From an uncultured Nitrospiraceae bacterium (GTDB taxonomy: Bacteria > Nitrospirota > Thermodesulfovibrionia > Thermodesulfovibrionales > SM23-35), in the NCBI GenBank assembly GCA_963727775.1, contig CAVSHB010000003.1:314400-378399 (forward strand): a stretch of DNA of 64,000 bases, written 5' to 3'. The notes below the pieces were generated by a model, which was given only the letters and a program-made list of their open reading frames with translations, was not told the DNA's origin and ran no database searches. This document shows, in pieces, positions 2,319 through 51,309 of the stretch; position 1 is the stretch's first letter, and the number at the start of each line of letters is the position of its first letter. The translations under genes were made by a program, and so were the position numbers.

Positions 2319-3581
2319 ATGTATTTTCTTTATAGCCTCATATATATAGTCGTGCTGCTTTTTATATTTCCGTTCGAGTATTTAAAAAGACCAAAAGAGA
2401 TCAGAAAAAGATGGCTGAGGGAAAAATTCGGGCTTCTCGATTCACTGATTACACCCCGATATTCATCTTCCGTCTGGGTCCATGCCGTGTCGGTCGGAGA
2501 AGTGACGGCAGCGCTGCCATTGTTAAAAAATCTGAAGGAGCGGTATCCGGCAAAAGCTATTGTCTTTTCAACGATCACCGACTCCGGACAAAAGGTGGCA
2601 AGTGACAGAGCGCCTGAAGGCACAAAGATCGTTTACCTTCCATTTGATATTGCACCAATCATTCAATCTGTCCTTAGGAAAACAAAGCCGGAAATTCTCA
2701 TTATAATCGAGACGGAATTATGGCCGAATTTGATAAAAGTATTCAGAGAAAACACGATACCTGTAATACTGCTGAACGGAAGGATATCTGAAAATTCATT
2801 TAACGGGTATAAGAGAATATCTTTTTTTATGAAAAGGGTTCTTTCCTATATAGACTTTTTCGGTATGCAGGGCGAAGAATATGCTGAAAGGATTAAAGAA
2901 CTTGGTGTCCGGGGAGATAGGACCATGAATTTGGGAAATTTTAAATTTGATACGAGACCTACCGCGCAGATACCGGGATGGACAGGACACATAAAAGGCC
3001 CTGTTATCACAGCAGGAAGCACACATGAAGGAGAGGAAGAATTAATGGCCTCAATATACACCGAACTGAAAAAAGATTTTCCTGATCTGAATCTCATAAT
3101 CGCCCCCAGACATCCTGAGAGGTTTAAAGCGGTAGAAGATATGCTCTCGTCGAAAGGTCTGATTTTTATTAAACGTTCAGGCATCGGCGCAGAGTCTGCC
3201 GGGGTGAAAAGGGTAAACGGAGAAATAATTCTTCTCGATACCATCGGTGAGCTATCCGCTGTTTATGGCATATCCGATATTACAGTCATCGGCAAAAGCT
3301 TTATGGGCCGTGGAGGTCAGAATCCGTTGGAACCGGCGTATTGGGGAAAAACCATTGTGTGCGGCCCGCACATGGAGAACTTCCCGGTAATCAAGGACTT
3401 CTATAATGCAGGCGCGGCCTTTGAAGTAAATGAGGCAAAGCTTTATTCAAAACTGAGAGAACTTCTGGCTTCTCCTGAAAAAGCAAAAGAAGCGGGATCA
3501 AAGGCAAAGGAATTATACGGGAAAAATTCCGGCGCTGTCAAAAGGGCGATTGAGATCATCGGAAGATACATCTCTCAGTAG
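2319..3581 (+). CDS. waaA: 3-deoxy-D-manno-octulosonic acid (Kdo) transferase
   Basis: 420 aa; WVHAVSVGEV motif and N-terminal membrane anchor typical of WaaA/KdtA. Confidence 0.9.
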   Translation: MYFLYSLIYIVVLLFIFPFEYLKRPKEIRKRWLREKFGLLDSLITPRYSSSVWVHAVSVGEVTAALPLLKNLKERYPAKAIVFSTITDSGQKVASDRAPEGTKIVYLPFDIAPIIQSVLRKTKPEILIIIETELWPNLIKVFRENTIPVILLNGRISENSFNGYKRISFFMKRVLSYIDFFGMQGEEYAERIKELGVRGDRTMNLGNFKFDTRPTAQIPGWTGHIKGPVITAGSTHEGEEELMASIYTELKKDFPDLNLIIAPRHPERFKAVEDMLSSKGLIFIKRSGIGAESAGVKRVNGEIILLDTIGELSAVYGISDITVIGKSFMGRGGQNPLEPAYWGKTIVCGPHMENFPVIKDFYNAGAAFEVNEAKLYSKLRELLASPEKAKEAGSKAKELYGKNSGAVKRAIEIIGRYISQ

Positions 3582-7747: not shown

Positions 7748-7807
7748 TATTTAATCACCTCCTTCCTTTACCTTTAAAGCGACGATAATAATTCTCCGCT
7801 TATATTA

Positions 7808-7836
7808 TTCATATATCATCTATTTCATTTTGTCAA
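7808..7836 (-). promoter_or_regulatory. candidate sigma-70 promoter for the 19-aa ORF
   Basis: minus strand TTGACA, 17 nt, TATGAA, about 60 nt upstream of the ATG. Confidence 0.35.
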
Positions 7837-27291: not shown

Positions 27292-27551
27292 TTATGGATA
27301 TTGTCTCTCGGAAACGGAAGAACCGAAAAGGCTTTGGAACAAGTCACCGAAAAGTTCTGTCTCCTCAGCCTACTTTTCAGCAAACAGTCTCTATTCCCGG
27401 TGGCGTCAAAGCTGATATCCAGTCTATAAGTTCGAGAACCTCAGCGAAAATATTCCTTATAGCCACCAAATACTGCTTCATAGAATAATTCTCATCCTTT
27501 ACAATCCCCATACTCTTTGTTCACACTCCCCCGGGCGGCTCAGCTCAATTT

Positions 27552-27589
27552 GTTTTATCCGCAATGCCTTTCGGCACTACGGATAAAAC
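27552..27589. repeat. extended hairpin GTTTTATCCG...CGGATAAAAC, candidate IS91 end structure
   Basis: 10-bp outer stem plus inner TGCC/GGCA stem; 5 nt from the RIT terminal repeat. Confidence 0.4.
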
Positions 27590-27688
27590 ACTATTCATTA
27601 TGTGGAGTTCCCCGTTATGTGAAGTAAACCTTGCAAGTATATGAATCACAATAATTATCGCTCAATCTACTTCACATAACGGGTAGGC

Positions 27689-30611: not shown

Positions 30612-31062
30612 CTCCTCGTTAATGTAGATATTTCAGTGAGGAGTATATCTATTATCAACTTATTATTATGTGGAGTAAATTTTTTCAGAATACTTATTTG
30701 ATAAGGAGTTAAGGCTGCTACTTCACATAACGGGGAACTCCACATAATGGCTGAAAGAGAGATTTTGAAATCGGACCCGATTGTGTTTCTTTCTGGATGT
30801 ACTGCGCCGCAATGATTTTTTCTCGGGTGTGAGGATTTCTTTTGAAAAGTGTGAGGGCCCTGATTCGACCGTGGTGTCAGGTAGTAGGTGTTACCAACAA
30901 AGGGATGGTGCATGGTACGGAGAAAAACATAGAGCCTCGCCTTGTTAAAGGCTTCGGTCTGTTCCTTTGGCCGAACCTGGCAACCTCTCGCCGGAATAGG
31001 TGGCCGGATTCGTCGGAATCTCCATAAGTTCGCTGTTAACCCGATTCATAAAATTTTCGTCT

Positions 31063-31171
31063 GCCGACAAATACAGTATTTGCGCTCATTCTCGGCCCGG
31101 TACAAATCGGGCTTCCGAGGTAAATTCTTTCTTCGAAAGAATATAGCCGCTTAAATACTGCATCTGTCGGC
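31063..31171 (-). repeat. structured palindromic repeat, copy in minus orientation
   Basis: reverse complement carries the AGTATTT..GCGG..ATTCTTTC-GAA-GAAAGAATTT-ACCTCGGAA-hairpin-CGAGAATGAGCGCAAATACT core. Confidence 0.7.
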
Positions 31172-31192
31172 AATCTTAATGAATAATGTAGG

Positions 31193-31975
31193 TTAATAAT
31201 TAGTTTGGAGCGGCGACAAAACGGTTTGTTCTACTGTTTTACATATTTGAGAGGCTGTCTTTTCCCGGTACTCTTCGATAGTTACAGGATCATGTAAAAA
31301 CACCCTGACGTGAATCTTTTTTTGAGAGCTGACCCTAATCGCATTTTCTTTAAAAGATTGAGGCTTGTTCCACGCAATTTCCCTTTCTTCTTTATAATGG
31401 AGGGTCACCGGCAATAAAGAAATATTCGGGTTGAGTTCGACTACCTTAAAAATACCTCTATTAAAAGATATCTTTTCCTGAATGCCGCTGGTCGTTCCCT
31501 GCGGGAAAACAGCAAGTATCCGTCCTGAACAACCGCCGGCAATAGCATTAATCACTCTGAGTCTTTCCCTTGAAGAACTGCGTTCAAAAAAAATAACGCC
31601 TGCCAGTCCTGCGATCTGTCCGATTATCGGATAATACCTTACTTCCGCTTTGCTTACGAACACAGAGCCGAATAAAGCCGATAGAACAAAAATATCGAGA
31701 AAGCTAACGTGGTTTGAAACTATTATAAGGTCCTTTCTTTGCCGGGGAATTCGTGAATCAGCTCCGTATTCAATCTTGACCCGAAAAACTGAGAGGCAGA
31801 TTTTTGAATAAAACTGCACAAGCTTCGGACCGACACCATATCGCCACCTGTAGAAGATGAACAATATCAGAAAATAAAATGGCGCTAGGATAAGGGTAAT
31901 AATCAGACACAAAGCCGTCTTCCAATAAAACATCCACAGACTGTTTTGTATATTTTCCTGCTCCGGCTCCGTCAC
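31193..31975 (-). CDS. lysophospholipid (1-acyl-sn-glycerol-3-phosphate) acyltransferase family protein
   Basis: 260 aa; HX4D motif NHVSFLDI and FPQGTTS. Confidence 0.75.
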   Translation of the reverse strand: MTEPEQENIQNSLWMFYWKTALCLIITLILAPFYFLILFIFYRWRYGVGPKLVQFYSKICLSVFRVKIEYGADSRIPRQRKDLIIVSNHVSFLDIFVLSALFGSVFVSKAEVRYYPIIGQIAGLAGVIFFERSSSRERLRVINAIAGGCSGRILAVFPQGTTSGIQEKISFNRGIFKVVELNPNISLLPVTLHYKEEREIAWNKPQSFKENAIRVSSQKKIHVRVFLHDPVTIEEYREKTASQICKTVEQTVLSPLQTNY

Positions 31976-37424: not shown

Positions 37425-38771
37425 TCACACGACATTTGGATTGAGCAACCTTCTTAATCCCCTCGCCGCACACTCCGGCGAAGAGAAAGCAGGTATTTTT
37501 GCCTTCTCAACAATGCCGATCAGTTTCCCTGATTCGCTGCTGCACGACGTATGAAATACCATCGGCTTGTCGGTCTTCTCTTTGAAACTCCTCAGGAGTT
37601 TGCCCACTCTTGCCGTGATCCCGACAACGCCTGTCAGGGCTATGATAAGAAAGCCGTCGTAATCATCCTTCAACTCCTCGAGCGCGGTGAGATAATCCTC
37701 GTCTTTCACCTGTGCCGTGAGATCAAGAGGATTGTTCACGCCGTAGAAGTAGGGAAAAGCCTGCTTGAGCCTTACCTTCTTTTGCTCGGGAAGCTGCGGT
37801 ATCTCCAGCCCCTGCCTGAGACACTCGTCAGCTGCGAGGACACCTGAACCGCCTCCGTTCGTCACGATCAGGACGCGATTGCCGCTGACAGGTTTTTGAT
37901 AAGAAAGCGCCTTCACCGTATCGATAAGATCGTCGAAGTCACGGGCTTCTTTGATCCCGTACTGTTCAAGCATGGACCTGAAAACTTCATACCTTCCCGC
38001 GAGTCTGCCGGTATGGGAATATGCTGCGATTCGGCCTCCGGAACGTTTTCCCGCTTTAAGAATAACGAGGTGTTTCTTCTCTGAGAGTTGTTTCGCCTTC
38101 TTGAGAAATTCTCTGCCGTTGCCCACTGACTCGATATAAGAGATGACGACGTCCGTCTTCCTATCGCTCATATAGTATTCGTAAAGGTCCGTCTCATCGA
38201 TATCAATGGCATTCCCATATGTGACAGCGCTGGAGACTCCCATATTGGAGTCCCGCATGGTCCCGAATAGACAATGCATGATAGCCCCGCTTTGGGACAC
38301 AATCGCCACATTGCCTTTTTTAGGTCTTGCCACTCTGTCGGGGGAAAGAAAGAATGTATCAAAGCTCCTGTAAGGGTTGAAGATACCCATGCAGTTCGGA
38401 CCGAGCATTCTGAGACCGAGCTTTGTCCCCAGATGTCTGATCTCCTCTTGCAGTTCTCCCTCTCCGATCTCGGCAAAGCCCGAGCTCATAATCACTACAC
38501 CCTTTGCCCTGCCTTCGTGTTCCTTAAGGAGATCGACTATTTCCGGAGCAGGCCTCAGAATCAACGAGAGGTCGACAAACTCCGGCACTTCTTTAATGGA
38601 CGGATACGTCTTTAATCCCATTAAGTTGTTGTATTTGGGATTTACGGGATAGACCTTCCCCTTGAATCTGAGCAGGTTTTTGAGGACTATTCCCCCCAGC
38701 TTCTCTTCGGCATGGGAAGCCCCTATCAAAGCCACCGTTTTCGGATTGAAAAGAAAGTTCAGATGGCTCAT
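37425..38771 (-). CDS. ADP-forming acyl-CoA synthetase, alpha (CoA-binding) subunit
   Basis: 448 aa; CoA-binding N-terminus, GPNCMGI, SQSGA, phosphohistidine context SHTGRLAG. Confidence 0.8.
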   Translation of the reverse strand: MSHLNFLFNPKTVALIGASHAEEKLGGIVLKNLLRFKGKVYPVNPKYNNLMGLKTYPSIKEVPEFVDLSLILRPAPEIVDLLKEHEGRAKGVVIMSSGFAEIGEGELQEEIRHLGTKLGLRMLGPNCMGIFNPYRSFDTFFLSPDRVARPKKGNVAIVSQSGAIMHCLFGTMRDSNMGVSSAVTYGNAIDIDETDLYEYYMSDRKTDVVISYIESVGNGREFLKKAKQLSEKKHLVILKAGKRSGGRIAAYSHTGRLAGRYEVFRSMLEQYGIKEARDFDDLIDTVKALSYQKPVSGNRVLIVTNGGGSGVLAADECLRQGLEIPQLPEQKKVRLKQAFPYFYGVNNPLDLTAQVKDEDYLTALEELKDDYDGFLIIALTGVVGITARVGKLLRSFKEKTDKPMVFHTSCSSESGKLIGIVEKAKIPAFSSPECAARGLRRLLNPNVV

Positions 38772-38803
38772 GTGCGGTAATCCTTCGCCGGAGCGTCGCC
38801 GAT

Positions 38804-38913
38804 GCGGCGGGTATAGTATTTTCGCGGATTTAAATTCTGTGCAGATTCATCGGAACAGAATTTACCTCGGAGGGCGATAGCCCGAGAATGAGCGACAATA
38901 CTTTGTCTGTCGC
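38804..38913 (+). repeat. structured palindromic repeat, plus orientation, between E2 and the synthetase alpha gene
   Basis: AGTATTTTCGCGG-ATTT-AAATTCTGT..ACAGAATTT-ACCTCGGAG-GGC-GATA-GCC-CGAGAATGAGCGACAATACT. Confidence 0.7.
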
Positions 38914-38931
38914 GTTTCACTGAAGCGTTAC

Positions 38932-40113
38932 TCATGTGCTCTCTATAAACAGCAGTCCCGGATCTTCGAGATACCTGACTATTTTAGATATAAACTTGGT
39001 GGCATCGACGCCGTCGGTCACCCTGTGGTCAAAAGTCAACGAGAGCGGAAGGATTCTTCTGATGGCGATCTTTCCATCCACCACCCAGGGTTTCTCGGAA
39101 ATCTTTCCCGTGCCGAGGATTGCAACATCCGGGTAGTCGATTATCGGCGTCGCAAACCCTCCCCCGAAGGCGCCATAATTCGTAATGCTGAATGTGCTTC
39201 CTCTCATTTCTTCGAGCTTGATCTTTCTCTCCCTCGCCTTCTTGCTCAAATTCTGGATCTCCTCCGCCAGTTCCAGGATAGATTTTTTGTCGACATTCGT
39301 TACAACGGGCACCATAAGGCCGTCGGGTGTGTCCACTGCAATGCCGAAATTAAAGTATTTCTTGACTACGATCTCCTCTTTTTCCTCATCCACCGAAGCA
39401 TTCAGAAGCTGATGCTCCCGCAATGCATGCTGGGCCGCCTTAATAAAGAAAGGCATGAAGGTCAGATGGATGTTTTTTTCAAGCAGCGATTTCTTCTCCC
39501 TCTCCCTTACCGACCAAAGCTCGGTGACATCGGCCTCTTCCATGGCGGTAACAAAGGCAGTTGTCCTCTGGGAGGTGATGAGATTTTTTGCGATAGTTCT
39601 TCTAATCCCCCTGATAGGAATTCTCTCAATTCCTCCGTATTGGTCCGGGGCCTCTTTACTCCTCGGTTTTTCAGAGACTTTCAGCACGTCCGTTGTCGTG
39701 ATGCTTCCTCCAGGGCCGGAACCCTCGACTGTCTTCAGGTCTATGCCGGACTCCTTTGCGAGGGCCCTCACGGCAGGCGTTGCGAGCACTTCTTCTCCCG
39801 CTTCAGGCAGAACGCCGATGACGGTCACCGACTTGGGACGCTCCTCCGCTTTCGGTTTTTCTTCCGCGGCTTCGCCCATTGCGAGGATTGTCATCAGAGT
39901 CTCTCCGACCTTTGCGATCTCGCCTTCCTGTTTCCCGATCTTAATGACCGTTCCTTTTTTGGGGGACGGCACTTCGACAACCGCCTTATCGGTTTCAACT
40001 TCAAGGACCGTCTGGTGTTCTTCCACGGCGTCGCCTTCCTTTACAAGCCAGGCCCGTATCTCGCCTTCGACTATCCCTTCTCCTAAATCGGGCAATACAA
40101 ATTCATAGGGCAT
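38932..40113 (-). CDS. 2-oxoacid dehydrogenase E2 dihydrolipoamide acyltransferase
   Basis: 393 aa; lipoyl domain VETDKA, E3-binding region, catalytic DHRVTDG. Confidence 0.9.
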   Translation of the reverse strand: MPYEFVLPDLGEGIVEGEIRAWLVKEGDAVEEHQTVLEVETDKAVVEVPSPKKGTVIKIGKQEGEIAKVGETLMTILAMGEAAEEKPKAEERPKSVTVIGVLPEAGEEVLATPAVRALAKESGIDLKTVEGSGPGGSITTTDVLKVSEKPRSKEAPDQYGGIERIPIRGIRRTIAKNLITSQRTTAFVTAMEEADVTELWSVREREKKSLLEKNIHLTFMPFFIKAAQHALREHQLLNASVDEEKEEIVVKKYFNFGIAVDTPDGLMVPVVTNVDKKSILELAEEIQNLSKKARERKIKLEEMRGSTFSITNYGAFGGGFATPIIDYPDVAILGTGKISEKPWVVDGKIAIRRILPLSLTFDHRVTDGVDATKFISKIVRYLEDPGLLFIEST

Positions 40114-44932: not shown

Positions 44933-45270
44933 TGTTTTCTGTTGTTAATTAGTAATTCACTCACGCCTCTATCCTTTAACTTTGAGGGAGATGTTACCTT
45001 CTCAATAACTTCTTGAAACATGCATCTGAGCTATGACCCTTTGGTCTGTCAGTTGCGTCCTAAAATCAACAAGAAATTACTAGTGCTCGGAATCTTCTTC
45101 GCATTCTCCCTCCTTTAGGTAGCTTCGTATCTACTGATAGCTGCGCATTTGTTATGGTTGGGAAAACTTTTCATGGATTGGAGATTACCCTCAAAATCCC
45201 TCCTTTTCATTGAAAGCCATTATAGCCATAACAAGCGTATTTAGTAAAACATAAGGGCTTTGCAAACTTT

Positions 45271-45318
45271 CGAATAAGCGTCAGTCCGCTGCGGCAGTTG
45301 CGGACTAACGCATATTCG
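45271..45318. terminator. 19-bp-stem hairpin between convergent genes
   Basis: CGAATAAGCGTCAGTCCGC-10 nt-GCGGACTAACGCATATTCG, 17/19 paired. Confidence 0.4.
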
Positions 45319-45378
45319 TTACCCGCACCCGACCTCGAAGATAATGCCTTCCGAACTATTCGATTGATTCCCGTGGCC

Positions 45379-46790: not shown

Positions 46791-46828
46791 TATGATATAG
46801 TATCATAATATAGCTGCATAATCAGCCC

Positions 46829-46950
46829 TAAATAATGGCGGAGACGGTATTTGAGCGGTTTTAAATTCTGTGAAGATTTATCGGAACAGAATTTACCTCG
46901 GAGGGCGACAGCCCGAGAATGAGCGAAAATACCGTGTCCGCCATTATTTA
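46829..46950 (+). repeat. structured palindromic repeat, plus orientation
   Basis: TAAATAATGGCGGAGACGGTATTTGAGCGG-TTTT-AAATTCTGT..ACAGAATTT-ACCTCGGAG-GGC-GACA-GCC-CGAGAATGAGCGAAAATACCGTGTCCGCCATTATTTA. Confidence 0.7.
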
Positions 46951-46958
46951 CAAATACG

Positions 46959-47384
46959 TCATGAATAATAAGGGGCGGTATTCAATAACTTTGTCAACAC
47001 AGGAATCAGTTCGGTACCCATTTTCCTCTTTGGTATATAGGCATTGGCCCCCGCTACAGCAGCGCCGGCCCGGTATGTGGAATCTTCATATATGCTCAGC
47101 ATTACTACCTGTGCCTTCGGAACAGCATCCCTAATGAGCCGGGTTGCGTCGATGCCGCTCATTCCGGGTAACATAATATCCATCAGGACGACGTCGGGCT
47201 GCATTTCCAGGACTTTGGCCAGGGCCTCTTCCGCGCTTTTTGACTGTAGAACACTACTGTCCCGGAAAACGGCGCCAAGCCACTTTTGTAATGATTCCCG
47301 CAGTGCATCATGATCTTCAATAATAAGGATAACGGGCTTCGTAATTTTGCAAATATCCCTGACATCGCCCATGATAAGATTCAA
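46959..47384 (-). CDS. single-domain response regulator (CheY-like receiver)
   Basis: 141 aa; DVVLMDIMLPGMSG, receiver fold only. Confidence 0.85.
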   Translation of the reverse strand: MNLIMGDVRDICKITKPVILIIEDHDALRESLQKWLGAVFRDSSVLQSKSAEEALAKVLEMQPDVVLMDIMLPGMSGIDATRLIRDAVPKAQVVMLSIYEDSTYRAGAAVAGANAYIPKRKMGTELIPVLTKLLNTAPYYS

Positions 47385-51058: not shown

Positions 51059-51130
51059 CTATTTTTCTACCACAGAATGAAAATAAGGTCAATGCATTTT
51101 CTCCTACCCCACTTAATTCACACAATTGTG

Positions 51131-51243
51131 ATTACCGGCAGATATAGTATTTGCGCGGTTTTAAATTCTTTCTTTGAAAGAATTTACCTCGGAGTCCGCC
51201 ACGGCGGACGAGAATGAGCGCAAGTACTATATCTGTCGGTAAT
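51131..51243 (+). repeat. structured palindromic repeat, plus orientation, upstream of purF
   Basis: ATTACCGGCAGATATAGTATTTGCGCGG-TTTT-AAATTCTTTC-TTT-GAAAGAATTT-ACCTCGGAG-TCCGC-CACG-GCGGA-CGAGAATGAGCGCAAGTACTATATCTGTCGGTAAT. Confidence 0.75.
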
Positions 51244-51309
51244 CCTTAATTATTATACACGGGAGTATAGAATCATTGAAGATTAGATATATGTTAAACT
51301 AATTTAATC

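Follow-up and report, generated by a model that had tools for sequence, protein, structure and literature searches.

The 64-kb window (the whole stretch of DNA analysed) holds exactly four copies of a structured repeat of about 110 nt, spaced 4–8 kb apart, in both orientations, and flanked by housekeeping genes encoding an acyltransferase, a 2-oxoacid dehydrogenase E2, a CoA ligase, a DUF2064 protein, response regulators, SelA and PurF. The four positions and strands of the original prediction were re-found with a covariance model of 49 relatives, at 88–106 bits, and the shared core motifs are present as it gave them; the same model, run with filters off, returned no fifth copy in the 64 kb. 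The length of about 110 nt proposed for the repeat covers only the inner two-thirds of a longer unit, which in most relatives measures about 155–170 nt, has inverted ends, encloses the fold and carries no gene of its own. The copies, referred to here by their position in kilobases, and the parts of the 51-kb copy are listed below.

31040–31192, minus strand: 31-kb copy, complete unit with both terminal inverted repeats (153 nt)
31061–31172, minus strand: 31-kb copy, core (covariance model, 96.9 bits)
31193–31196, unstranded: 31-kb copy, left TTAA target-site duplication (sequence)
31036–31039, unstranded: 31-kb copy, right TTAA target-site duplication (sequence; pattern family-wide)
38802–38916, plus strand: 38-kb copy, core only (covariance model, 87.7 bits)
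46826–46975, plus strand: 46-kb copy with end remnants (sequence)
46833–46947, plus strand: 46-kb copy, core (covariance model, 104.7 bits)
51107–51266, plus strand: 51-kb copy, whole inserted unit (sequence; segment absent from the selA–purF spacers of six relatives)
51107–51122, plus strand: left end remnant, CCCCACTTAATTCACA (sequence)
51133–51242, plus strand: core, three-way junction (covariance model, 106.2 bits, E 1.9e-24)
51130–51156, plus strand: 5' arm of the outer stem P1 (pairs with 51218–51244 in the minimum-energy fold)
51157–51162, plus strand: GG and TTTT ahead of P2
51163–51185, plus strand: hairpin P2, AAATTCTTTC-TTT-GAAAGAATTT (fold and alignment)
51186–51188, plus strand: ACC after P2
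51188–51212, plus strand: hairpin P3 (base CTC/GAG conserved; variable tip GTCCGCC-ACG-GCGGAC)
51191–51193, plus strand: conserved GGA bulge of P3
51213–51217, plus strand: conserved joining strand AATGA, from P3 to P1
51218–51244, plus strand: 3' arm of P1 (minimum-energy fold)
51247–51266, plus strand: right end remnant, TTAATTATTATACACGGGAG (sequence)

End remnants are present in three of the four copies. The 31-kb copy has the inverted ends CCTACATTATTCAT / ATGAATCGGG, and the TAA of its left TTAA is the stop codon of the acyltransferase ORF (31193–31975, minus strand). Terminal repeats are not recognisable in the 38-kb copy, which sits between the stop of the 2-oxoacid dehydrogenase E2 gene (38932–40113, minus strand) and the start of the CoA-ligase gene (37425–38771, minus strand), antisense to both; no orthologously retained copy was found beside relatives of the adjacent CoA-ligase gene (at most 63% identity). 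The 46-kb copy, also antisense to both of its flanking genes, retains the end remnants CCCTAAATAAT (46826–46836) and ATGAATAATAAGGGG (46961–46975). The stop and last few codons of a response-regulator ORF (46959–47384, minus strand) lie inside the right-end remnant of this copy (46959–46975), and the insertion seems to have given that gene its present C-terminus and stop.

The 51-kb copy occupies the spacer between the divergent genes selA and purF, the SelA of the window being about 80% identical to that of Thermodesulfovibrionia MAGs, which places the window in that group. Empty sites in related genomes, which the original prediction had named as something to look for, are found here: the selA–purF spacers of six relatives (L094, L095, L096, L098, L100 and L102) lack the segment, with the flanks AATAAGGTCAA... 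and ...GATATATGTTAAA still aligning. The element's 5' half survives as a remnant, GGCAGGATATAGTATCTGAGCGGTTTCTTTTGCCGCTGCC, in the selA–purF spacer of a further relative, L101 (about 2780–2900, reverse strand); this may be an independent insertion or a decayed one.

Each window copy is predicted to fold into a long outer stem closing two inner hairpins, with z-scores between -4.4 and -11.4 (-66.7 kcal/mol and z -11.4 for the 51-kb core), and in all four the sense strand as originally assigned is more stable than its complement by 6–15 kcal/mol. Covariation was measured in an alignment of 49 copies mutually less than 90% identical, where standard pairs fill 96% of 1812 cells, as against 34–49% when the 3' partners are slid by 1–3 columns, and where 22 of 37 pairs (247 cells) change on both sides; no measure was reached by any of 500 shuffles. 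All three helices covary. The claim that the outer stem differs between copies and stays paired through compensatory changes is borne out in this set, with 18 of the 20 P1 pairs changing on both sides, as do three of the four pairs of the P3 tip; the hairpin following CTCGGAR does have three unrelated sequences in the window, as had been observed, one of them shared by the 38-kb and 46-kb copies. The seeming invariance of P2 is an effect of the search pattern, which fixed P2, and in bystander copies (L074:6892, L059:4476, L248:5177 and L131) P2 is swapped for unrelated helices between the same joining strands.

The fixed parts of the junction are GAGCGG-NUUU before P2, ACC between P2 and P3, the CUC/GAG base of P3 with its GGA bulge, and GAAUGA before the return strand of P1. 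The joining strand AATGA is invariant in alignment A2, with G changed to A in a few copies recovered by a 5'-anchored scan. The tandem GA/GA adjoining the junction is replaced by Watson–Crick pairs in the 51-kb and 38-kb window copies and in the subfamily of chromosome OY970295.1, and thus simply belongs to P1. The three-way junction with conserved joining strands that had been proposed from the four window copies is thus genuine, and it covaries. This is unusual for an element of the class to which the repeat belongs (see below); the conserved part is the asymmetric interior rather than the ends.

Two departures from this architecture were observed. A variant subfamily (L009 134–237; L238 1725–1854; L249 259–387) has one more short hairpin, placed between CGAG and (A)AGCG in the final joining strand, which makes the junction four-way. 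A G+C-rich distant relative in a Nitrospiraceae MAG (L131 1542–1674, minus strand; 43.8 bits) has an entirely different P1 and P2 and keeps the motifs GAGCG, UCGGAGG and CGAGAAUGA(A)GCG, which suggests that the junction motif predates the AT-rich subfamilies.

As the original prediction held, the fold belongs to no known RNA family: Rfam gave no hit in the window at gathering threshold (best sub-threshold score 21.8 bits, against a cutoff of 76), and permissive E-values on a copy also returned nothing. The hammerhead ribozyme, whose core is CUGANGA/GAAA, was rejected by eye, the junction strands not matching that core. A small protein was likewise rejected: frames opening with AUG are short, lack conservation and are interrupted by indels, and helix lengths differ among subfamilies by non-multiples of three, so that no reading frame is conserved. 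No sigma-70-like promoter beyond chance was found in or beside the copies, nor a canonical terminator by a terminator scan that is blind to branched stems.

The complete unit has terminal inverted repeats (CCCAYWTWATTCAYAAA...), which read CCCATATTATTCATAAA ... TTTATGAATTAAGTGGG in 40 full copies, with variants in other genomes; the ends are of the type CCCAYWTWATTCA, the inverted repeats measure 17–25 nt, and the consensus unit spans 166 nt, flanks included. The flanking tetranucleotide is YTAR and is identical on both sides in 25 of the 40 full copies (TTAG in 13, CTAA in 7, TTAA in 5), compared with a mean of 9.7 and a maximum of 18 under shuffled pairing. TTAG is never paired with its reverse complement CTAA, which marks the flanks as direct repeats produced by target-site duplication and not as a continuation of the stem. 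Insertion often uses the TAA or TAG of a gene's stop codon. One copy lies within the TTAA of another copy's end (L056), and other repeat families are nested inside some copies.

The inverted ends, the duplicated 4-bp YTAR target, the orthologous sites that lack the element, the insertion of copies into one another and the bursts that yielded dozens of copies together identify the repeats as copies of a non-autonomous DNA transposon, a MITE of about 155–170 nt, with every structural hallmark of the class except an identified autonomous partner. This anatomy does not support reading the repeats as an independent family of RNA genes or as a simple palindrome. A match to a MITE had been named as an outcome that would explain the element away; the anatomy is indeed that of a MITE, and the strand-specific fold survives as a genuine and unexplained property. 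The duplication YTAR is that of the IS5 family (PMC5009759), whose members and MITE derivatives also share short inverted ends with the new element; the new element, however, lacks a transposase gene, and it is the target signature that links it to IS5. By that signature, the MITE is putatively mobilised in trans by an IS5-type DDE transposase. No cognate transposase had been evident in the window, and the wider search agrees: in about 0.9 Mb of fetched loci, neither an IS with the ends of this MITE nor a partner transposase or longer parent element was found by examining orphan ends, intra-genome repeats of at least 300 bp, all-against-all BLAST and ORFs beside truncated copies. Candidates for a parent IS proved to be truncated or diverged copies, nested repeats or toxin–antitoxin-like genes. 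One truncated MITE end (L047 3285–6855) stands beside a run of small ORFs that we take, by eye, to be toxin–antitoxin-like (PIN-like, RelE-like and DUF2283-like).

The family is confined to Thermodesulfovibrionales. When 185,579 species-representative genomes were scanned for an exact pattern, more than 93 loci were recovered, almost all of them in Thermodesulfovibrionales or Nitrospirota MAGs, and a second, complete, 5'-anchored scan returned 45 loci, all from the Thermodesulfovibrionales/Nitrospirota clade, with the 3' motif mostly, not always, intact; most copies were found with patterns fixing part of the core, so that some of the conservation at those bases is built in by the search. One MAG contains a burst of at least 53 near-identical copies, many of them where contigs end, and the complete 3.6-Mb chromosome OY970295.1 carries at least 13 copies of a different subfamily. 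Copies on L002 (labelled Elusimicrobiales) and L003 (labelled as a Nitrososphaerales archaeon) are near-identical to those of a Thermodesulfovibrionales MAG from the same Kamchatka sampling, and these short contigs are probably mis-binned. No copies were found in viral contigs, phage records or plasmid records. An earlier description of this repeat family was not found in the literature searched; the class of MITEs is already known, and the family is a previously undescribed member of it.

The outer stems of the window copies had been described as having G-T rather than A-C at nearly all non-Watson–Crick positions, with four, two and two such pairs in three copies; the absence of A-C mismatches holds, the counts being two (31 kb), six (38 kb), none (46 kb) and three (51 kb). 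The bias extends to the larger set, where G-U or U-G occupies 91 paired positions and A-C or C-A 20, with G-U in excess in 38 of 49 sequences and the reverse in two. Each G-T becomes an A-C when read on the opposite strand, and selection on duplex DNA or on a cruciform is symmetric, so neither can give rise to the ratio of 91:20. Since old copies lie mostly antisense to genes, the usual mutation biases linked to transcription or replication would be expected to favour the other strand, and unpaired columns have no matching excess of C>T or A>G. With duplex selection and mutation bias failing to explain it, the excess of G-U implies that one strand is selected to fold on its own. To this extent the claim of selection on a single-stranded, probably RNA, fold stands, in the one-strand fold and its bias; that the strand is RNA rather than single-stranded DNA is something we infer.

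The 53-copy burst was used to tally departures from consensus at paired positions. Variants common to at least two copies comprise 13 of G-U and two of A-C type, compared with five and eight among singletons (Fisher p = 0.016, with small numbers and shared variants that are partly non-independent), and the four commonest variants, found in 10–19 copies each, are all of G-U type. Shared variants descend from a source copy that kept transposing and singletons most likely arose once a copy was in place, a contrast suggesting that the fold matters for multiplying and not for residing at a locus. In the orthologous pair L054/L057 the whole region is so similar that purifying selection does not stand out.

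Orientation relative to genes was assigned using ORFs of 100 aa or more that do not overlap, in place of annotation, for copies lying between two genes of the same direction. Burst copies divide into 11 antisense and 13 sense, compared with 32 antisense and four sense in other genomes (42 and eight with the second scan, p about 1e-6; burst against other genomes, p = 0.002). Copies outside the burst are usually few per genome and have decayed ends. The sequence around the target is symmetric, so insertion is unoriented and the antisense bias must develop after it. In the antisense class, a few tens of bases at most usually separate the 3' end of the copy from the stop codon of the upstream gene. 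Within the window, the 38-kb and 46-kb copies belong to this class, the 31-kb copy is sense, and the 51-kb copy stands between divergent genes. Local GC skew, examined for a link between copy orientation and replication, follows the gene strand, and copies have no consistent position or orientation with respect to any gene family.

The reading favoured here, which we hold to be probable, is that of a MITE with a sense-strand fold, probably formed as RNA, that is needed in spreading lineages. Transcription crossing a copy in the sense direction would generate the fold, most likely as RNA, and the fold would be required in lineages that keep multiplying; spreading variants tolerate G-U and not A-C, while private mutations in resident copies are unbiased, which is the ground for tying the fold to spread. 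Copies co-transcribed in the sense direction would be lost with age, either by staying mobile and leaving or through disturbance of the host mRNA by the folded RNA, and immobile antisense copies would remain as fossils; such a loss would explain why the old 38-kb and 46-kb copies lie antisense to their operons. The fold could serve as a processing site, a binding site or a cofactor for mobilisation; we know of no DDE transposase that needs a single-stranded fold. G-T is better tolerated than A-C in DNA as well, so the ratio of 91:20 does not by itself prove RNA, and in a rough apportioning RNA stands slightly better than an even chance of being the folding strand, displaced or single-stranded DNA takes a clear minority share, and the rest falls to other forms.

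That the selected fold is single-stranded DNA, exposed at a replication fork or transcription bubble and recognised by a mobilising enzyme or host factor, is possible but doubtful. The lesser disruption caused by G-T than by A-C in DNA accommodates the 91:20 ratio, the variants preserving the fold are those that spread, and depletion with age of sense-co-transcribed copies is expected if the displaced non-template strand must fold for excision; terminal inverted repeats and a YTAR duplication, however, indicate a DDE mechanism acting on double-stranded DNA, no duplication is made by the known single-strand transposons (IS200/IS605, REP/RAYT), and both copy orientations are present within 20 kb of the window. 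An origin of the core as a remnant of the mRNA leader of a parent IS transposase, in which fold-back hides the ribosome-binding site (GGAGG in ACCUCGGAGG) and the AUG (in GAGAAUGAGCG), would place selection in the parent, with the MITE inheriting the result. GGAGG and AUG are invariant in the core, and strand-specific selection seen in spreading lineages and not in residents is the pattern expected of inheritance from a selected parent. This origin is nonetheless unlikely: a parent element with these ends was not found in about 0.9 Mb of loci, the frame after the AUG is not conserved and has stops in some subfamilies (L073, for example), the 3' arm of P1 mirrors the 5' arm over about 20 bp, unlike coding sequence, and all subfamilies would have to inherit the same deletion junction.

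An ordinary palindromic MITE, its arms kept by duplex protein binding or hairpin-templated repair and its G-U excess artefactual, would have no single-strand function at all. MITEs are generally predicted to form long hairpins (PMC10969869). The relatedness of the copies, which makes the counts non-independent, also speaks for such an element. Duplex recognition and cruciforms are symmetric, though, and cannot yield 91:20; known mutation biases favour the opposite strand, unpaired columns are without asymmetry, and it is the asymmetric junction rather than the ends that is conserved, so that this explanation is disfavoured and distinctly unlikely. Co-option of old copies by the host as terminators or 3'-end stabilisers, in their antisense form in host mRNA, would fit the old copies placed directly after stop codons and antisense to genes, and the ten A-rich nucleotides before P1 do provide modestly more U after the antisense hairpin (mean 4.5, compared with 3.3; p = 0.001). 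It is improbable in view of the scan, in which a canonical terminator was not found, of the 38-kb copy, which lies inside an operon and has no U tract, and of the G-U bias itself, since antisense selection predicts tolerance of A-C on the sense strand and the opposite is seen. A conserved junction, covarying helices and a strand bias would befit an immobile multi-copy small-RNA gene or riboswitch-like regulator, which is contradicted by terminal repeats, target duplications, empty sites and nested insertions, by the lack of a consistent gene-family position or orientation and by the promoter scan, where none was found, and is very improbable.

Under the favoured reading, a fold needed for the spread of the MITE would tie the mobility of a classical inverted-repeat transposon to the direction of transcription, and would offer a compact junction motif, 70 nt long, in which to look for binding, cleavage or processing. 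A bolder and decidedly tentative proposal is that the three-way junction may be a new functional nucleic-acid motif needed by a DDE-type MITE, with terminal inverted repeats and a target-site duplication, in order to multiply, acting as an RNA or displaced-strand cofactor or as a catalytic or processing RNA, with its formation dependent on transcription direction. If true, a cut- or copy-and-paste element would have a strand-specific, structure-dependent step. To our knowledge, such a step has until now been known only in RNA-guided elements and in those of HUH type (IS200/IS605, REP/RAYT).

Several known families resemble the new one in part. ERIC, or IRU, a 127-bp MITE of enterobacteria and Yersinia, is likewise small, intergenic and imperfectly palindromic, has terminal repeats, duplicates a short AT-rich target and is predicted to fold as RNA (PMC10969869). 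What it does to adjacent mRNA varies with its orientation: 3'-end insertions unmask an RNase E site (PMC10969869). There is, however, no sequence similarity; ERIC forms essentially one long hairpin in place of a conserved asymmetric three-way junction, and the new MITE differs in its 4-bp YTAR duplication and in its Nitrospirota host clade. Correia elements (NEMIS) of Neisseria are also many-copy MITEs, often adjoining genes, whose transcripts form a long duplex processed by RNase III at the paired ends, with altered expression (PMC10969869). The function of Correia elements maps instead to paired terminal repeats and to promoter and IHF sites. We know of no description in them of a conserved internal junction covarying across an order-level clade.

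REPINs, doublets of REP sequences mobilised by RAYT tyrosine transposases, are mobile hairpin repeats of about 100 nt in which compensatory changes keep the hairpin (PMC3116915), and their single-stranded form is thought to be a transposition intermediate (PMC3116915). They are the closest precedent for the proposed fold-dependent spread; they differ, however, in having no target duplication or YTAR and in consisting of two short REP palindromes tied to a RAYT. Membership of the REPIN/REP-RAYT group was rejected on the duplication, on ends reading CCCA.../...TGGG and on the lack of a REP-type unit or tags, and an IS200/IS605-type element on the inverted ends and on a flanking tetranucleotide that varies yet matches on both sides. 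An integron attC site, suggested by CTAAC/GTTAG-like ends, was rejected on the 4–8-kb spacing, both orientations and housekeeping neighbours of the copies.

The MITE offers a natural case in which the interior of a transposon, not its ends, has RNA-like covariation and a strand bias, and in which recent and old copies differ in orientation. Having the family named and delimited matters for assembly and binning: it fragments Thermodesulfovibrionales metagenome assemblies, many contigs ending inside it, and two contigs that bear it were binned in unrelated phyla. It also explains the four puzzling structured repeats of the window.

Other repeats and hairpins were observed alongside the family. 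A second, unrelated repeat of about 185 bp (L002 147–335) is nested in several MITE copies of the Kamchatka MAG and stands alone in L013 (minus strand, about 560–750) and L003; its sequence, TTTACGAAAACTGCCAGAATGCCCC...GGCAGTTTTCGTAAA, precedes three short G+C-rich hairpins. Within the window, a 72-nt hairpin at 27612–27683 (minus strand) has a perfect 20-bp stem, the ends CCCGTTATGTGAA.../...TTCACATAACGGG and an internal TTGAGCG, and scores weakly with the covariance model (16.7 bits, E 0.07); this may be either a relative that has lost its interior or an unrelated palindrome. A separate, bidirectional terminator-like hairpin lies at about 27545–27585, and an isolated intergenic hairpin at 45270–45320 has an 18-bp stem (-33 kcal/mol, z -4.9) and a sequence unrelated to the MITE. 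A solitary CTTATATTATTCATATA at 7798–7815, with no core nearby, resembles the MITE terminal repeat, perhaps as a solo end or perhaps by chance.

Chromosome OY970295.1 contains a third repeat, about 230 nt long (L240, about 147–375; L235 1312–1480; L245 4810–4982; L233, upstream of 5498), with the ends TTAACCCGAAAAATGC ... GCAGTTTTTGGGTTAA, P1-like internal arms GGCAGGCATAGTG/CACTATGCC and no Rfam match. The MITE is inserted at the same TTAG inside this repeat at at least four loci, and the composite of the two may itself have been copied. In L235, an RNase P RNA gene (1857–2219; 237 bits) lies about 220 nt downstream of a composite MITE insertion.
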